64,000 nt of DNA, from assembly GCA_031402515.1 (NCBI GenBank), contig JANNSK010000097.1, forward strand, positions 7,429 to 71,428, written 5' to 3'. Source of the DNA: Alphaproteobacteria bacterium (lineage in GTDB: Bacteria; Pseudomonadota; Alphaproteobacteria; Rickettsiales; UBA3002). Below are positions 8,291-55,332 of this stretch, piece after piece. The position numbers and the translations under genes are program-made. The notes beneath the pieces were generated by a model. That model searched no databases. It worked only from the letters and a program-made list of their open reading frames with translations, and was not told the origin of the DNA. Each line of letters begins with the position of its first letter. Position 1 is the first letter of the stretch.

Positions 8291-9085
8291 CTAATTACTC
8301 AGCTGCTTAGACCGCTTTGCCGCTGCCTTTGTCGCCTTTTTAACGATGCTACGCAGCCCGTTTTTCTTGAAGCTTTTCAGCGCGGCTTCGGTCGTACCTT
8401 GCGGGCTGGTGACTTGCTTGCGTAACGCGGCGACATCGCCACCCTTAGCATCAGCAAGCAACACCGCACCACGTATCGTTTGTGTAACGAGTGTGCGCGA
8501 AAGCGCCTCGCCAAGCCCTAGCGATTGCGATGCTGCCATCAGCGATTCCATAAAGGCAAAGAGGTAAGCGGGGCCGGAGCCGGAAATCGCCGTCACCGCA
8601 TGCATGTCTTTTTCCCGCTCGAGCATGACAACCGGCCCCACCGCGCTGAATAAAGCCTTCACTGTATTCTGTAGCGCCACCGGGACTTTGGGTGCACAGA
8701 TGGCGCTGATGCCCTCGCCGATAAGCGCCGGTGTATTCGGCATCACCCGCACGGCGTATTTGCCAATACGGTTAAATCGGGAAAGTGGCACACCGGCCAT
8801 GATGGAGATGAGTAGCGAGGTGTTAATCCCACGACGTTTGCGCAATTGGGCCAGCACCTCATCTGCCATCTGTGGTTTGACGGCAAGGATGATCATCTCT
8901 GCCGCGCCGGGAAATGCAGCGAGCGAGGCGTAGATTCTGACACCGGGCGTGCCGAAGGATTTGCGCTTGGGTTCGTTGGGTTCAATGACGGAAATCGTCG
9001 CCGACTTAAAGCGCTCCCGCCAGCGCGCGGCCAGCGCCGCGCCCATATTTCCGCCACCGATGATGAGGATGGATTTCATAGCCAT
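8291..9085 (-). CDS. proC: pyrroline-5-carboxylate reductase
   Basis: N-terminal NAD(P) fold ILIIGGGNMGAALA and the ProC C-terminal dimerisation region (VTSPQGTTEAAL). Confidence 0.9.
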   Translation of the reverse strand: MAMKSILIIGGGNMGAALAARWRERFKSATISVIEPNEPKRKSFGTPGVRIYASLAAFPGAAEMIILAVKPQMADEVLAQLRKRRGINTSLLISIMAGVPLSRFNRIGKYAVRVMPNTPALIGEGISAICAPKVPVALQNTVKALFSAVGPVVMLEREKDMHAVTAISGSGPAYLFAFMESLMAASQSLGLGEALSRTLVTQTIRGAVLLADAKGGDVAALRKQVTSPQGTTEAALKSFKKNGLRSIVKKATKAAAKRSKQLSN

Positions 9086-9840: not shown

Positions 9841-10086
9841 CTATTCCGCGCGTTTTTTTAACATTTCAAGTTCCTGCGCCAGCCGTTCATTCTCGGTGCG
9901 GGCCTTTTCCGCCATGGCCTTGACAACTTCGAACTCATCGCGGGTAACGAAGCGTTCGCGGGCCACAAGCCGCTCAAGCTTATCGGCGATAGTGGCTTCG
10001 ATCTCGCGCTTCATGTCCATCAGCGCGCCGGCAGCGCCCGATGTCATCCGCGCGAGGTCTTCGAAGAGCTTGGAGTCTTTTTGCAT
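9841..10086 (-). CDS. ubiK: UbiK/YqiC (BMFP) family accessory factor
   Basis: 81-aa coiled-coil protein (LFEDLARMTSGAAG...VTRDEFEVVKAMAEKARTENERL). Confidence 0.75.
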   Translation of the reverse strand: MQKDSKLFEDLARMTSGAAGALMDMKREIEATIADKLERLVARERFVTRDEFEVVKAMAEKARTENERLAQELEMLKKRAE

Positions 10087-10186
10087 AGTCGCTAGTGCTA
10101 GTTGCTAGTTGCTAGTCGAAGAAATGTATAGCAGATTAGTCGCCATGACAATCCTTCCACTAGCAACTAGCACTAGCGACTAGCAC
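10087..10186. repeat. inverted heptamer-array hairpin, unit GCTAGTK
   Basis: agtcgctagtgctagttgctagttgctagtcg ... ccactagcaactagcactagcgactagcac. It fills the divergent ubiK/hldD spacer. Confidence 0.9.
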
Positions 10187-10188
10187 TT

Positions 10189-11181
10189 ATGAAACGCATT
10201 CTCGTCACCGGCGGCGCCGGCTTCATCGGTTCGAATATCGCAGGATCGCTCGCCCGCGGCGGCGCATACCGCATTACCGTGGCCGATGAATTCTCCTCAA
10301 GCGAGAAATGGCGCAACCTTGCCAAACACCCGATTTACGAAATCATATCGCCTGTCGACATATTTCACTGGCTCGAAGGCAATAAGGGCGACCTCGAGGC
10401 GATTATCCATATGGGGGCGACCTCATCGACCACGGAAAAGAACGTTGATCTCATCCTCAAAAATAATTTCTCGCTGTCGCGCGTGCTGTGGAACTGGGCG
10501 GTGATTAACAAAAGACGGCTGATTTATGCCTCTTCCGCTGCTACGTATGGCGACGGCTCGGTTGGATTCAAGGACGACCTTTCGCTCGACTATCAGCGCA
10601 CGCTGCACCCGCTCAACGCCTATGGCTGGAGCAAGCATCTGTTCGACCAGTTTGTCGCCATCGCTGCCGCCGGTGGTGATAAAATGCCAGAGCAATGGGT
10701 AGGGCTCAAATTCTTCAACGTCTACGGGCCGAACGAATATCACAAGGATCACCAGCGCTCCGTCGTCTGCCAGAATTATGCCTACGCGCAGCATGGCCGT
10801 CCGGTGCATCTGTTCAAATCGCTCAATCCGAAATACAAAGATGGCGGACAGTTGCGCGACTTTATCTATGTAAAGGATTGCGTGAAAGTGGTGAACTGGC
10901 TGCTCGCCAACCCGAAGGTGAACGGGCTGTACAATCTGGGTACCGGCAAGGCGCGCAGTTTTGAGGACCTCGCCAAGGCGCTGTTTGCTGCGCTTGGCAA
11001 ACCGCTCGCCATTACCTACGGCGACATGCCCGAAGAGTTACGCGCCAAATACCAATATTTTACCGAGGCTGAAATGGAGCGGTTAAAGGCAGCAGGATAC
11101 ACCGAGCCCTTTACCTCGCTCGAAGACGGCGTGAAAGATTACGTGCAGAACTATCTGGCGAAAGATGATCAGTATTTTTAG
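10189..11181 (+). CDS. hldD: ADP-L-glycero-D-manno-heptose 6-epimerase
   Basis: ILVTGGAGFIGSN, YASSAATYG, LNAYGWSK, FFNVYGPNEYHK, and a C-terminus (YQYFTEAEMERLKAAGY) matching the HldD pattern. Confidence 0.85.
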   Translation: MKRILVTGGAGFIGSNIAGSLARGGAYRITVADEFSSSEKWRNLAKHPIYEIISPVDIFHWLEGNKGDLEAIIHMGATSSTTEKNVDLILKNNFSLSRVLWNWAVINKRRLIYASSAATYGDGSVGFKDDLSLDYQRTLHPLNAYGWSKHLFDQFVAIAAAGGDKMPEQWVGLKFFNVYGPNEYHKDHQRSVVCQNYAYAQHGRPVHLFKSLNPKYKDGGQLRDFIYVKDCVKVVNWLLANPKVNGLYNLGTGKARSFEDLAKALFAALGKPLAITYGDMPEELRAKYQYFTEAEMERLKAAGYTEPFTSLEDGVKDYVQNYLAKDDQYF

Positions 11182-14131: not shown

Positions 14132-14359
14132 CAGAGTCTGAGAGTCGAGTGAAGAATGCCCTCACCCGAAAATCGTGAAGGACGATTTTCGACCTCTCCC
14201 AAGGGAGAGGTAGGCAAGCCGCTCGCTCCTGTTCTTTCTTCCAATCCGCGCCAGCGGATACCCCTCTCCCTTGGGAGAGGTCAAAATCCACTTCTTGGTG
14301 GATTTTGGGTGAGGGCATGCTGGCAGGAATTTTCACTCGACTCTCGACTCTCGATTCTG
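14132..14359. repeat. inverted heptamer-array hairpin, unit GAGAGTC, with a ~160-bp GC-rich element nested in the loop
   Basis: Arms cagagtctgagagtcgagtgaagaat (14132-14157) and attttcactcgactctcgactctcgattctg (14329-14359). Confidence 0.85.
14158..14317. repeat. GC-rich MITE-like element, family A variant
   Basis: Terminal inverted repeats gccctcacccgaaaatc / gattttgggtgagggc. Internal hairpins cctctcccaagggagagg and cccctctcccttgggagagg. Confidence 0.8.
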
Positions 14360-20771: not shown

Positions 20772-20797
20772 CACTCGACTCTCGACTCTCGACTCTG
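20772..20797. repeat. solo heptamer array (GACTCTC x3; complement of the GAGAGTC unit), no partner arm
   Basis: cactcgactctcgactctcgactctg, 15 nt upstream of the prs ATG and about 50 nt downstream of a GC-rich element. Confidence 0.8.
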
Positions 20798-24996: not shown

Positions 24997-25025
24997 AAAA
25001 AAAAGACCGGGCACAAGGCCCGGCC
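24997..25025 (-). terminator. Rho-independent terminator, minus-strand specific
   Basis: On the minus strand: GGCCGGGC-cttgt-GCCCGGTC followed by T8. On the plus strand there is no T-run. It lies about 440 nt downstream of the LysR stop. Confidence 0.7.
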
Positions 25026-25140
25026 AGATTTAAACAGGGAGGCAAGCGCGCCTTGGTCGTTGCACCTTAGCGCGCCTTACGTTTCGCGCGAAACCGCGCC
25101 AAACGAGCCGCGACCATAGAGATGCTGCTTTGCAACACAA

Positions 25141-32606: not shown

Positions 32607-35600
32607 GCGGCGTTGCGCTTACTCATTTTCGCTACGTAATATTGTAACGGTTGCACGTCGAGCCCCTTGGGCGCTTTGGCAATGGCGGCGATGGCCTTGG
32701 TCATCGCGTGCGCACCGGAGATCGTCGTTGAGTAAGGAATCTTGCCGAAGAGTGCGGTTTTGCGGATGGAGGCCGAGTCGGCAATTGAGCGGGCGCCTTC
32801 GGTGGTGTTGAAGACGAGCGCGATTTTTCCATCCTTCATCAGATCGACGATATGCGGCCTGCCTTCGCGTACTTTATTGACGATAGTCACCCCATGCTTT
32901 TGCGATTGCAGATATTCGCCCGTGCCGCGCGTACAGACAATCGTGAAACCAAGCGCAATGAGTTCACCAGCGATTCTCGCCGCCATTTCTTTATCGCGGT
33001 CTTTGACCGACAGGAACACCGCGCCCTTTTTCGGCAAGGTGGAGCCCGAACCGATATAGCCCTTGGCAAAGGCGTGGGCGAAGTCGCGATCGATGCCCAT
33101 GGTCTCGCCGGTGGATTTCATTTCCGGTCCCAAAATAATATCGACACCGGGGAAACGGGCGAAGGGGAACACGACTTCTTTCACGGCCACGTGTTTCAGC
33201 GACTTCATATGGGTGCGATCATCCGGAAGGTTGAAGGTTTTGAGCATTTCACCCGCCATCAATCGCGCCGCGATTTTGGCGATGGGAATGCCGGTGGCTT
33301 TGGCGACGAAAGGCACGGTGCGCGAGGCGCGCGGGTTGACTTCAATGATATAGATTTCGCCGCCCTTAATCGCGAACTGCACATTCATCAGCCCGCGGAC
33401 TTTCAGCGCCAGCGCCATGGCCTTAGTTTGTTTCTGCACTTCTTCAATGAGCGCGTCGCTTAGCGAGTAAGGGGGCAAGCTGCAGGCTGAGTCACCCGAA
33501 TGGATGCCAGCCTCCTCGATATGCTCCATCACGCCCGCGACATAGGTATCTTTACCATCGCACAGGCAGTCGACATCGAGTTCGATGGCGTCGCTCAGGT
33601 AGGAATCAAGCAGTACCGGCCCGTCGCCGAACATGCTGAGCAGTTCTTTCACGTAATTCTTTAGCGTATCGGGTTCATGGATAATCTTCATGGCGCGGCC
33701 ACCCAGCACATAGGAGGGGCGCACCACCACCGGGTAGCCAATTTTCTCGGCTTGTTCGATGACATCATCCGCGTGTTTGCAGATGGCGTTTTTCGGCTGC
33801 TTGAGTTTGAGTTTATGCAGCAGTTGCTGGAAGCGCTCGCGATCCTCAGCCAAATCAATCGAATCGACCGAGGTACCGATAATCGGAATGCCTGCCTGCT
33901 CCAGCGCGTGGGCAAGTTTGAGCGGCGTTTGGCCCCCGAACTGCACGATGCAGCCTACGATTTCACCATTTTTCGCCTCGGCCTCGATAATCTCAATCAC
34001 ATCCTCAGCGGTGAGCGGTTCGAAATAAAGCCGGTCGGAAGTATCATAATCTGTCGACACCGTTTCCGGGTTGCAGTTGATCATGATGGTTTCGTAGTTT
34101 TCTCTTGAAGGGGGGCTTGCCCCCCCTTCGCTTCGCTGACCCCTGCCGCTTCGCGGCTCGCCTTCGGCTACGCGCGCGCCATTTCCGCGCAGAGCGTAGG
34201 CGGCGTGCACGCAGCAATAATCAAATTCGATACCCTGGCCGATGCGATTCGGCCCGCCGCCCAGGATAAAGATCTTTTTGGCCGACGAAGGCGCAACCTC
34301 CGATTCGGCCGCGGTTTCACCATCCCCCTCATAGGTCGAGTACATATACGGGGTGAGGGAAGAGAATTCCGCCGCACAGGTATCGACGCGTTTGAACACG
34401 GGACGGATGTTATGTTTATGGCGCAGTGCGCGGATTTTTAGCTCGTCCGTTTTCGTAAGCCGCGCCAATTGCCGATCCGAGAAGCCGAGTTTTTTGAGAT
34501 GCTGTAACTCGCGCGCATCTTTCGGCAGGCCGTTTTCTTTTACCCAATTCTCTGCATCGACGATGGTTTTCAACTGGTGAATAAACCACGGATCGTATTT
34601 GGCGATGCTACAGATTTCTTCGACCGACATGCCGAAGCGCAGCGCCTGCGCCGCTTTCAGAATCCGGTCAGGCGAGGGAATAGAAAGCGCCGAGCGCACG
34701 GGATCGAGATTATCCGCCGATGCACCTTCGATTTCCACTTCATCCAGCCCAGTCAAGCCGGTCTCCAGCGAACGCAGCGCCTTTTGCAGTGACTCGGGGA
34801 AGCTGCGCGCCATCGCCATTGCCTCGCCGACGGATTTCATCGCCGTGGTCAGTGTGGCCTCGGAGCCGGGGAATTTCTCGAACGTAAAGCGCGGTATTTT
34901 GGTGACGATGTAATCAATCGTCGGTTCGAACGAGGCCGGCGTGGCTTTCGTCACATCGTTCATCACTTCGTCGAGCGTATAGCCCACCGCGAGTTTCGCC
35001 GCGACCTTGGCAATGGGAAATCCCGTCGCTTTCGAGGCCAGCGCGGAGGAGCGCGACACGCGTGGGTTCATTTCGATGACGACCATGCGGCCATCCGCCG
35101 GGTTCACCGCGAACTGCACGTTGGAGCCGCCGGTATCGACACCGATTTCGCGCAGCACGGCGATCGACGCATCGCGCATGATCTGGAATTCTTTGTCCGT
35201 CAACGTGAGCGCCGGGGCGACGGTGATGGAGTCGCCGGTATGAATCCCCATCGGGTCGACATTTTCAATCGAGCAGACGATAATGCAGTTGTCCGCCTTG
35301 TCGCGCACCACTTCCATCTCGTATTCTTTCCAGCCGAGAACCGACTCGTCGATCATCACTTCGCCGACGGGAGATGCATCAAGGCCCGAGGCCACGATTT
35401 GCTCGAACTCCTCGCGGTTGTAGGCGATGCCGCCGCCGGCGCCGCCCATGGTAAAGCTGGGGCGGATGATGACAGTGGGCCCGACGATTTTGTAGGCTTC
35501 GCGCGCTTCTTCCAGCGATTTCACCACCACATTTTTGGGAACCGCAAGCCCGATGCGCGCCATCGCCTGGCCGAAGAGCAGGCGATCTTCCGCCTTGTTG

Positions 35601-35968
35601 ATGGCCTCGAGCGATGCGCCAATTAACTCTACTCCGTATTTTTTCAGCACGCCGGATTCAGCCAGCGCTTTGGCACAGTTGAGCGCCGTTTGGCCGCCCA
35701 TGGTGGGCAACAGCGCGTCCGGCTTCTCCTTGGCGATGATTTTCTCGACGAACTCTGGCGTAATCGGTTCGATATAGGTCGCATCCGCCAATTCCGGATC
35801 GGTCATGATCGTCGCCGGGTTGGAATTCACCAGAATCACCCGGTAGCCTTCTTTCTTGAGCGTTGTCACCGCCTGCGTGCCCGAATAATCAAACTCGCAG
35901 GCCTGGCCGATCACAATCGGCCCGGCGCCGATGATGAGGATGGATTTTATGTCAGTGCGGCGGGGCAT
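32603..35968 (-). CDS. carB: carbamoyl-phosphate synthase large subunit, with a 28-codon in-frame repeat insertion
   Basis: Full-length CarB with two ATP-grasp halves and an MGS-like C-terminus. An insertion lies at aa 595-622, between ..[10 protein letters not shown] and [15 protein letters not shown]. Confidence 0.95.
34103..34186 (-). repeat. 84-nt family-B-like repeat inserted in frame in carB
   Basis: The carB-sense sequence contains cgcgtagccg and gcgagcc blocks and a G7-caa-C6 hairpin. It encodes [28 protein letters not shown]. Confidence 0.75.
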
Positions 35969-37158
35969 CAGGCCACCCTCTTCTTGTGCGCGTCGATCAT
36001 TTCGACGAAGCGCTTGAACATATAGTGCGAATCATGCGGGCCGGGGGAGGCTTCGGGGTGGCCTTGCACCGAAAACACCGGCGCGGATTTCATTTCGATG
36101 CCTTGGATGGTGCCATCGAACAGCGAACGGTGGGTGACTTCGATTTCTGCAGGCAATCCCGAATCGCTAATGGCGAAGCCATGATTCTGCGAGGTGATAG
36201 ACACCTTACCCGTACGCAAATCCTTCACCGGATGGTTAGCGCCGCGATGGCCCTGTTTCATTTTCTCGGTTTTGGCATTGAGTGCGATGCCCAGCATCTG
36301 GTGGCCGAGGCATATGCCGAATAGCGGGATGCCCGAGGCGATTAGTTTTTTAATGACAGGCACTGCGTATGTACCCGTCGCCGCCGGATCGCCGGGCCCG
36401 TTGGATAAAAATATGCCGTCGGGCTTCAGCGCTAACACATCCTCGGCGCTCGTAGTGGCAGGCACCACGGTGATGCGGCAACCGGCTGAGGCAATGCAGC
36501 GCAGGATGTTCAGCTTCACGCCGTAATCGATGGCTACCACATGGTAAGAGGTGGCAGGTGGCAGGTGGCAGGTGGCAAGCGAGTCATAGCCTTTGCCAAG
36601 CTTCCACTTGGTCTGATCCCAGATGTGGGATTTCTTGGTGGTGACCGTGGCCGCCAATTCCAGTCCAGCCATATTGGGCGCCGCGGCCAGCCGCTGCTTC
36701 GCCTGTTCGCTTGCCACCTGCCACTTGCCACCTGCCACATAAGCAATCGCCGCATTCTGCGCACCCTTGGTGCGGATATGTCGGGTCAGTGCGCGCGTAT
36801 CGACACCGGTAATGCCGGTGAGTTTGTTTTTCTTCAGCCATGCATCGAGATGCAAAGTAGAGCGGAAATTCGATGGGTCGGTAATCGCCTCGCGAAGGAC
36901 AAGACCCGCTACGACGGGTGTCGCGGATTCGATATCCTCGTCGTTGGTGCCTACATTGCCAATATGGGGGAAGGTGAAGGTGATAATCTGGCCGCAATAG
37001 GAGGGATCAGTGAGCACTTCCTGGTAGCCGGTCATCGCGGTATTAAAACAGATTTCACCAGAGGTGGCACCTTCATGCCCGATGCCATATCCGGAAAACA
37101 CCGCCCCGTCCGCGAGTACCAGCGCGGCGTTCGGGGGTTTTACCAGCGACACGACCAT
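35968..37158 (-). CDS. carA: carbamoyl-phosphate synthase small subunit (glutaminase)
   Basis: CarA N-terminal domain followed by a class-I GATase (GICLGHQ, HRG.NHPV, QGHPE). The stop overlaps the carB start. Confidence 0.95.
36548..36738. repeat. inverted heptamer arrays (unit GTGGCAG) inside carA, arms 128 nt apart
   Basis: gaggtggcaggtggcaggtggcaggtggcaagc (36548-36580) and gcttgccacctgccacttgccacctgccac (36709-36738). Confidence 0.9.
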
Positions 37159-55259: not shown

Positions 55260-55332
55260 ATGTGACAAGTGACAGGTGGCAGGTGACATGTTACGCCTCG
55301 GCCCTTGTCACCTGTCACCTGTCACATGTCAC
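55260..55332. repeat. inverted heptamer-array hairpin, unit GTGACAG
   Basis: atgtgacaagtgacaggtggcaggtgacatg ... cttgtcacctgtcacctgtcacatgtcac. It runs from the bamB stop to 5 nt before the der ATG. Confidence 0.9.

Follow-up and report, generated by a model that had tools for sequence, protein, structure and literature searches.

Complementary heptamer arrays recur in frame at both ends of the CarA inter-domain linker in a clade of uncultured Alphaproteobacteria

We analyzed a 64,000-nt stretch of an alphaproteobacterial genome (contig JANNSK010000097.1 of assembly GCA_031402515.1, positions 7,429 to 71,428; hereafter the window) and found that its carA gene, encoding the small subunit of carbamoyl-phosphate synthase, carries two complementary arrays of tandem GTGGCAG heptamers, one at each end of the linker between the two CarA domains. 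Comparison with related genomes indicates that this hairpin is not an isolated oddity but a recurrent, site-specific feature of the whole clade, built from heptamers that differ by genome, and that the hairpins to which it is related share the architecture of the Coxiella intervening sequence (IVS) and of four-helix-bundle elements. On balance, we lean towards the interpretation that this hairpin is one of a family of heptamer-array hairpins spread through the genome, here split and embedded in coding sequence, and that a process acting at the DNA level would keep its arms complementary. The parts of the locus are the following:

35968..37158, minus strand: carA, intact, 396 aa (open reading frame (ORF), Pfam and structure-database alignment)
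36707..36738, minus strand: 5' arm, in carA sense GTGGCAG GTGGCAA GTGGCAG GTGGCAA GCGA, CarA residues ~141-151
36583..36706, minus strand: 124-nt loop of native carA coding sequence, residues ~152-192 of the inter-domain linker (homology to E. coli CarA and all orthologues)
36551..36582, minus strand: 3' arm, in carA sense TCGC TTGCCAC CTGCCAC CTGCCAC CTGCCAC, CarA residues ~193-203

The two arms (36551-36582 and 36707-36738) measure 32 nt each and are complementary at 31/32 positions (97%) across a spacing of 124 nt. An earlier note on this DNA had described an inverted repeat at this place with arms of about 28 bp and a gap of 128 nt; its position stands, and its dimensions are hereby corrected. 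Each arm comprises about four GTGGCAG heptamers and is detected as a period-7 tandem array (36549-36577, 4.1 copies with 100% match; 36712-36738, 3.9 copies), and the complementarity runs 4-5 nt past the arrays (AGCGA/TCGCT). As the note had proposed, both arms are read in frame, with the peptides it gave, in translation of the intact ORF, and both lie at the ends of the inter-domain linker, between the Pfam CPSase_sm_chain (residues 13-138) and GATase (residues 209-386) domains. Its view that real CarA linker separates the arms, so that they do not form one inserted block, was likewise borne out, since the inter-arm protein sequence aligns with the E. coli CarA linker FPGLNGMDLAKEVTT (PDB 1t36_B) and with the near-invariant APDMNGLELAAHVTT of close CarA orthologues.

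In the AlphaFold (AF2) model of CarA (predicted local distance difference test score, pLDDT, 81), the first arm forms the turn following strand 135-140 and the beginning of helix 146-159, and the second arm lies in the lowest-confidence loop (190-198, pLDDT <50), directly before the first GATase strand (205-211). GTGGCAG/CTGCCAC is free of stop codons in all frames and both orientations, which the intergenic variant GTGACAG is not. CarA may thus tolerate the arms because they encode a turn and helix start and a low-confidence, likely flexible loop, and because the unit is stop-free.

The observation proved real and significant. The motif GTGGCAGGTGGCA, allowing up to one mismatch, occurs 11 times in the window compared to 0.02 expected, and the inverted-repeat score of this part of carA is 29, whereas the best score among ~120 arm-less orthologues is at most 10. 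Folding of the 211-nt segment as RNA yielded -110.9 kcal/mol versus -77.7 +/- 4.5 kcal/mol for shuffled sequences (z = -7.4), with the entire 32-bp stem contained in the minimum free energy structure. Taken together, the motif count, the fold z-score and the low scores of arm-less orthologues exclude chance as the origin of the hairpin. A Logan assembly of run SRR20217205 (locus L177) is 100% identical to the window across 5,227 nt, both arms and loop included, and terminates exactly past the second arm. Because this independent assembly is identical, the hairpin is not an assembly artifact; misassembly, which the note had considered, is therefore ruled out, as is its other reservation, a carA pseudogene, by the intact 396-aa ORF.

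We scanned carA in 160 related loci (designated by L numbers) and in five loci fetched by protein. Ten further genomes carry an inverted heptamer array pair at the same two CarA positions, with arms of 26-32 nt, loops of 108-146 nt of native linker and, among them, seven or more different heptamer units. The split carA hairpins are built from the following units:

L002 and L164: AGTGRCC
L006 and L165: AGTCRCC
L015: AGTTGCC
L018: CGGATGA
L026: GGTGGAC
L056: GGATTCA
L090: AGAGTTC
L124: AGTCGCC

Within each genome the arms match, and between genomes they differ; complementarity is thus present in every carrier despite differing units, and the gains were partly independent. The array reading frame also varies by genome, which is why the arm peptides are not conserved. 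Where the units of other carriers contain stop codons, the in-frame positions are mutated, and this, together with GTGGCAG being stop-free both ways, makes a coding constraint visible. All carriers fall within one deep clade of uncultured Alphaproteobacteria (labels of the metagenome-assembled genomes: Rickettsiales, Alphaproteobacteria or Pseudomonadota), and no comparable hairpin was found in ~85 other alphaproteobacterial carA genes. Other states occur as well: a single arm in L016 (site 1) and L027 (site 2), eroded arm pairs in L113 and L163, and one compact in-frame hairpin, at site 2 of L041. Homogenization of units can affect one arm while its partner stays as it was: in L006, three units of arm 1 only have a G-to-A change. 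CarA site 2 takes insertions of +15 to +35 aa from other repeats in other genomes, and carB takes compact hairpins.

By the evidence of orthologue comparison, the hairpin of the window is a lineage-specific gain that postdates the split from its closest known relative, and such gains have recurred in the clade. The closest orthologue, P0002 (= L161), is sister to the window CarA in 99/100 bootstraps, shares 79% amino acid identity and the same gene order, and is 391 aa long with neither arm; its 2.3-kb contig holds no period-7 arrays. At the two sites it has SGKVDMDKAKAAL and PELRGDEKTLP. These loop motifs are ancestral, as they are common to many relatives at 70-75% identity on both sides of that group's root. 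The arm segments are therefore lineage-specific, a point that the note had raised, with other residues in the sister and in most relatives. The window CarA is 5 residues longer than its sister (+2 and +3), so that 64 nt of arms brought a net gain of just 15 nt, indicating that the arrays mostly overwrote old loop codons.

The same arithmetic (396 versus 391 aa) contradicts the suggestion in the note of two complementary in-frame insertions, and it weighs on the related alternative that a mobile palindromic repeat, comparable to Rickettsia palindromic elements (RPEs), inserted twice in unrelated events, the copies being complementary only via their opposite orientation. The occurrence of the unit family at three other loci of the window, the in-frame insertion of other repeat types at CarA site 2 and in carB, and the single-arm states of L016 and L027 would all fit such a history. 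However, we consider it very unlikely, given that in all 11 genomes the two arms correspond in heptamer, length and register (31/32 here) but vary from one genome to the next, that no genome has arms of two different units, and that the complementarity extends beyond the arrays themselves. Insertion of one contiguous block, as is typical of RPEs, was rejected, as the arms stand 124 nt apart around homologous sequence with a net change of +5 aa.

The distribution of carriers also bears on how often the hairpin arose. In the subclade (L090,(L124,(L018,L026))) all four members carry it, each with its own unit, which shows that the hairpin was inherited while its unit turned over. In the rest of the clade, arm-less genes with the ancestral motifs stand among the carriers, so that several independent gains are required. 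A single origin in the clade ancestor, followed by inheritance with unit turnover and many losses, would make the window copy no independent gain; this scenario would accommodate the four-unit subclade, the presence of the AGTCGCC unit in carA of the distant branches L006/L165, L124 and L113, the decayed remnants in L113, L163 and L009, which suggest erosion, and the first arm of L002, a mosaic of AGTGRCC and AGAGTTC units. As an account of the window copy it appears decidedly improbable, though, since 'GK.D…KAK.AL' and 'ELRGDEK.LP' are found in the well-supported sister as well as in lineages to either side of the root of the 70-80% identity group, and regaining these motifs after overwriting is implausible. 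The data call for subclade inheritance and for several separate gains alike.

Within the window, the carA hairpin is one of ~15 hairpins of the form heptamer array, loop and complementary array, which fall into at least eight unit families. They abut start or stop codons and typically occupy the whole gap from a stop codon to the next start codon. Period-7 arrays are confined to certain genomes, and periods of 5, 6, 8 and 10 give essentially none. The GTGGCAG unit family is found at three further window loci besides carA, and hairpins of this and related units are located as follows:

55262..55332: intergenic hairpin, GTGACAG/GTGGCAG, 27-nt arms and 17-nt loop, filling the gap between the stop codon of the upstream gene and the der start codon
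51584..51660: intergenic hairpin, GTGGCAG/GTGACAG, in the divergent spacer upstream of guaA
2843..2904: weaker hairpin of the related units TGGCATG / GTGACAG, its second arm read within the MltA N-terminal lipoprotein signal peptide (…VTCHLPLVALILLAGC)

The recurrence of TCHLP/CHLPP-type peptides that the note had remarked on was verified in the N-terminus of the MltA ORF ('RVTCHLPLVALILLAGC') and in read-through frames upstream of the der and guaA starts; the TCHLP peptide is the CTGCCAC array read in frame. The MltA N-terminus (…MWHAVRFITRVTCHLPLVALILLAGC, with lipobox; window 2861-2935) is partly encoded by the 2843/2890 hairpin arms, and a repeat arm thus appears to supply signal-peptide residues. 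A further hairpin, of GCTAGTT type and 24/24 complementary, makes up the whole of the 102-nt spacer (window 10084-10187) between the divergent ORFs 9841-10086(-) and 10189-11181(+), its arms abutting both start codons and leaving no room outside for conventional promoters or Shine-Dalgarno sequences. Rfam returned nothing at gathering thresholds for any heptamer hairpin of the window.

The wider family became apparent in relatives in which a second element adjoins carA. In L026, L020, L041, L053 and L090, a hairpin with a ~380-410-nt loop lies directly after the gene, and the loop ORF matches Pfam 23S_rRNA_IVP (PF05635, E = 4e-42) and TIGR02436 'four helix bundle protein', with a weak match to Avd of diversity-generating retroelements. 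Such PF05635 loop ORFs are present in the neighbor elements of these five loci and in L007, and inverted heptamer arrays border every full-length PF05635/TIGR02436 gene in the fetched loci (6/6), the loops measuring 363-408 nt. In L056, the loop between the arrays is shorter and retains a 47-aa PF05635 remnant, suggesting that such elements decay into hairpins with no ORF. Hairpins that lie next to each other often have a unit in common. The split carA arms of L090 and L056, like the compact carA hairpin of L041, repeat the unit of the four-helix-bundle element beside them, and in L056 and L090 each module boundary has an array of one common unit, four in all, in the alternating order + - + -. 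We rejected co-evolution of the four-helix-bundle protein with its flanking heptamer, as pairwise protein identities (50-61%) do not track the unit.

The arrangement extends to plasmids of other phyla. In 8/10 plasmids sampled, a homologous gene lies between inverted tandem arrays, above shuffle controls; the positive plasmids (Nostoc, Calothrix, Anabaena, Picosynechococcus, Geminocystis, Gemmatirosa, Azospirillum and Riemerella) spread the element over Cyanobacteriota, Gemmatimonadota, Bacteroidota and Azospirillum. The unit in Anabaena sp. 90, GTGACAG, is the heptamer of the der hairpin of the window. The plasmid genes are often wedged between operon partners, namely ribonucleotide reductase (RNR) beta/alpha, cas6/cas4 and cas10/cmr3. 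These gene positions and flanks suggest a widespread operon-invading element related to rRNA IVSs, possibly also to the cyanobacterial short tandemly repeated repetitive (STRR) sequences. Among the cyanobacterial plasmids L166, L168, L169 and L170, in which S23p genes stand between RNR beta/alpha, cas6/cas4 and cas10/cmr3, inverted heptamer or near-heptamer arrays flank the gene in L166, L168 and L169, not in L170.

Starting from the anatomy, recurrence, lineage-specific gain and family architecture demonstrated above, we infer a copying mechanism and neutrality for carA itself. Heptamer hairpins fill most intergenic gaps of this genome and its relatives, and in their full-length form an S23p/Avd-like (PF05635) four-helix-bundle gene stands between inverted heptamer arrays. 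The arms in carA took the place of the only two weakly constrained stretches beside the inter-domain linker, leaving the length almost unchanged. Replication slippage may homogenize the units inside an arm, and copying templated by a hairpin or an array, through template switching or short-patch conversion, may couple both arms and sometimes neighboring hairpins. Purifying selection on the protein would confine the arrays to unconstrained codons and fix the loop length, which could be why the arms look like replacements. The gene would not need the stem; as by-products, the 32-bp mRNA stem may become a substrate of RNase III when ribosomes do not hold it open, and both arrays may act as frameshift hotspots.

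The chief competing explanation is a selected long-range RNA structure, in which the 32-bp stem in the carA(B) mRNA would be functional, e.g., as an RNase III entry site coupling carAB half-life to translation rate, or as a ribosome pause at the domain boundary. Several observations are in its favor: the stem is strongly predicted (z = -7.4) and is the best-paired hairpin in the window, a split stem occurs at the same two sites in 11 genomes though the units differ, the compact form is rare though site 2 would tolerate one, and RNase III cuts the heptamer-repeat stems of the Coxiella IVS (PMC4990558). Nevertheless, the sister lineage and most close relatives lack the stem and keep ordinary loops, single-arm and decayed states occur, and hairpins of the family are perfectly complementary even where their arms would be in different transcripts. 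Furthermore, translating ribosomes would melt a stem in which both arms are coding. Selection on the sense strand was addressed through the asymmetry between G-U and A-C mismatches and gained no support: the counts, which are small and mutually dependent, were GU 9 / AC 6 / other 10 in the co-directional hairpins of the window and GU 5 / AC 14 / other 5 in the carA hairpins of nine carriers, i.e., the mismatches are not enriched in G-U and in carA are rather A-C. The lack of a sense-strand G-U bias, together with the 24/24 hairpin in the 102-nt divergent spacer, the arms of which would lie in different transcripts, argues for maintenance at the DNA level over the sense RNA. We regard a selected RNA structure as unlikely. 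The long-range stem in an essential mRNA that the note had envisaged is accordingly upheld as a predicted fold, whereas no test run supported selection on the sense RNA. RNAalifold returned no alignable consensus structure among the 11 carriers, because the arms are not alignable in sequence. A known RNA family was rejected as the identity of the carA stem, which matched only two plant miRNA precursor models, far below the Rfam threshold, a generic long-stem artifact.

We also weighed a genetic switch, either an intragenic inverton of the linker segment or slippage of an array by one unit, turning carA off and on. Inverted repeats do stand on either side of a coding segment, a one-unit slip would shift the frame, and heptamer copy number is variable between Coxiella strains (PMC4990558). 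Against this, inversion of the segment in silico gives two stop codons, the ORFs beside carA include no recombinase gene, most hairpins of this kind lie between genes with no switch apparent there, two assemblies have an identical state and one orientation, and carA is a housekeeping biosynthetic gene. Such a switch is hardly credible.

Several points weigh against the copying account that we favor. No other hairpin in the window pairs as perfectly as the carA stem, and the stem recurs at the same sites; both facts fit selection for pairing equally well. The mismatch counts on which the DNA-level argument draws have the limits given with them. No PF05635 or four-helix-bundle gene lies in the 64-kb window, and the hairpins nearest to carA there use other units. 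We also rejected, as a general explanation, a native proto-stem that could have seeded template switching: in 26 relatives without arms, the best pairing of one site with the other (5.38 nt) was no better than expected from shuffling (5.08 nt). The sister gene does have a CGGCAA/TTGCCG 6-mer at the two sites (Gly-Lys and Leu-Pro codons). Finally, split forms outnumber compact in-frame hairpins in carA by 11 to 1, and neutral tolerance alone does not explain this excess. The excess, the missing seed and the perfection of the stem lend some weight both to selected pairing across the linker and to the more speculative reading given next. The copying mechanism, moreover, is one we infer from sequence comparison.

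More speculatively, an active 'hairpin-writing' process at the DNA level might install complementary heptamer arrays, and keep them in register, at the boundaries of conserved blocks, between genes and, in carA, between domains. It would operate in this clade and, by extension, in many bacteria with S23p genes and heptamer arrays, with the Avd-like four-helix-bundle protein as a candidate component and the split carA hairpin as its clearest natural reporter. On this reading, since native and homologous sequence separates the arms, each of them was necessarily put where it now stands, repeatedly and at the same two sites. We put this forward tentatively and consider it less likely than not.

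The carA locus connects two long-standing observations. Heptanucleotide repeats are, as reported, the most abundant long simple-sequence repeats in most surveyed bacterial genomes, and the S23p 'IVS protein' family is widespread; both have gone decades without explanation, and carA links them. The case is unusually informative because the sequence enclosed by the arms is coding and conserved, and can be compared with many orthologues that lack them. The locus reveals that arms replace prior sequence and come as matched pairs, that the unit turns over with complementarity kept, and that the same sites are hit repeatedly, so that the origin and maintenance of such hairpins become directly testable. 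It also carries a warning for annotation, as repeat-derived peptides occur in essential enzymes, signal peptides and spurious N-terminal extensions of these genomes.

Among known systems, the closest in architecture are the IVSs of 23S rRNA, for which helix 25 is one insertion site. The Coxiella IVS inserts at another, helix 45, and consists of an S23p ORF in a 28-bp inverted-repeat stem with 3-4 tandem GACAGAT heptamers, the copy number of which varies between strains; the stem is cut by RNase III, and such elements are also reported for Leptospira and Brucella (PMC4990558). The carA hairpin resembles it in having a ~28-32-bp stem of terminal inverted repeats with tandem heptamers of variable copy number, and relatives of this genome have the PF05635/TIGR02436 ORF in a loop directly after carA. 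It differs in lying outside rRNA (Rfam gave no rRNA match in the window), in having native carA coding sequence where the IVS has its S23p ORF, and in that both arms are translated.

Heptamer repeats are also known from cyanobacteria as STRR sequences. In Xanthomonas, GGGAATC arrays form convergent inverted pairs, and Nostoc has GGGGAYT arrays (Rehm et al. 2015, PMC4692102). As in the window, these are tandem 7-nt units in nearby inverted pairs capable of forming stem-loops, mostly located between genes and differing in length among close relatives. In contrast, they use essentially one unit genome-wide, whereas here at least eight families occur in 64 kb, the units are locus-specific and the carA copy is intragenic. 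The marine Beggiatoaceae have TAACTGA direct heptamer repeats upstream of start codons (MacGregor 2015, PMC4679880). Their arrays likewise end a few bases from the start codons of genes without a Shine-Dalgarno sequence, and occasional copies within ORFs are limited by stop codons in the repeat; however, they are direct repeats of one unit and almost never inverted pairs.

RPEs insert as one block of ~100-150 bp and follow a family consensus. Together with the protein-coding palindromic repeats of Wolbachia (Ogata et al.; cited in PMC3733652), they show palindromes tolerated in frame in conserved protein genes, at expected surface loops and with lineage-specific peptides. The carA arms share these traits, lying in frame in tolerant loops of a conserved, intact protein gene, but their halves are 124 nt apart around native sequence and codons have been replaced rather than added. 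Moreover, the carA hairpin shares only the heptamer unit with other loci, loops and lengths differing, and there is no full-length consensus. Repetitive extragenic palindromes (REPs), bacterial interspersed mosaic elements (BIMEs) and REP doublets forming hairpins (REPINs) are short dispersed palindromes in the intergenic gaps of operons, with intragenic copies known (PMC3733652, PMC3116915). The hairpins of the window similarly are short dispersed palindromes filling operon gaps, although they lack a GTAG/CGTC head and a 20-40-nt family consensus, their arms being tandem heptamers that vary by locus; no RAYT gene was seen within the 64-kb window.

In quasipalindrome template-switch mutagenesis, one arm is copied from the other at the DNA level, which makes imperfect inverted repeats perfect. 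Classically, this involves short, close arms that already share flanking complementarity, and the two carA sites differ in having no native seed between them. In the literature searched, which left out most subscription journals, we found no account of locus-specific heptamer hairpins in Alphaproteobacteria or of a carA hairpin, no general link between PF05635 and heptamer arrays outside rRNA, and no intragenic split copy. Inverted heptamer arrays of the IVS and Xanthomonas types are thus known, as are in-frame palindromic repeats, and the split, intragenic, recurrent and codon-replacing form is new here.

The ORFs flanking carA are a pilin-like gene, a PHB (polyhydroxybutyrate) depolymerase and carB, and the carA stop codon overlaps the carB start codon. 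In relatives, this junction contains inserts (L162 2148-2666, L164 7221-7682, L165 7203-8194) comprising an unknown 172-aa ORF, a 153-aa secreted-looking ORF, and a YCII and nucleotidyltransferase pair. Because several relatives hold such other small inserted genes there, the carA-carB junction is a general insertion hotspot in the clade. Further heptamer arrays of relatives lie in carB or in a third variable CarA loop (residues ~85-95), at L163 8407-8437 / 8637-8656, at L164 6232-6262, 9266-9440 and 10417-10518, and at L026 14317-14342; L163 carB possibly holds a split pair with a ~200-nt loop.

The carB gene of the window (minus strand) has a 28-aa in-frame insertion at 34090-34175, single-copy in the window, with a perfect hairpin, GAAGGGGGG-GCAAG-CCCCCCTTC, at 34107-34129; we take its position to be that of E. 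coli 'LREDGYETIM'. L084, L085 and L010 have peptides resembling this insertion at CarA site 2, suggesting that another family of in-frame repeats, unrelated to the heptamer arrays, is present. In the arm-less sister, a REP-like, GC-rich palindromic repeat (GTCATTCCCGCGCAGGCGGGAATC…) occupies L161 955-1030, upstream of carA, and a carB peptide of L026 (…IPAKAGIQRAAS…LDSRFRGNDE…) looks derived from an in-frame repeat similar to it.

Elsewhere in the window, an Rfam match to the small RNA SorX at 24999-25084 (-) lies barely above its gathering score (47.3 versus 46.6 bits). Two CTCGACT arrays (14336-14358 and 20774-20796) are unlike the other arrays of the window in having no inverted partner; they share the same orientation, 6.4 kb apart, and each lies ~20-40 nt upstream of a start codon. 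The first adjoins two Rfam whalefall-1 matches above the gathering score, 14158-14213 (-) and 14260-14316 (+), which are inverted and ~50 nt apart.

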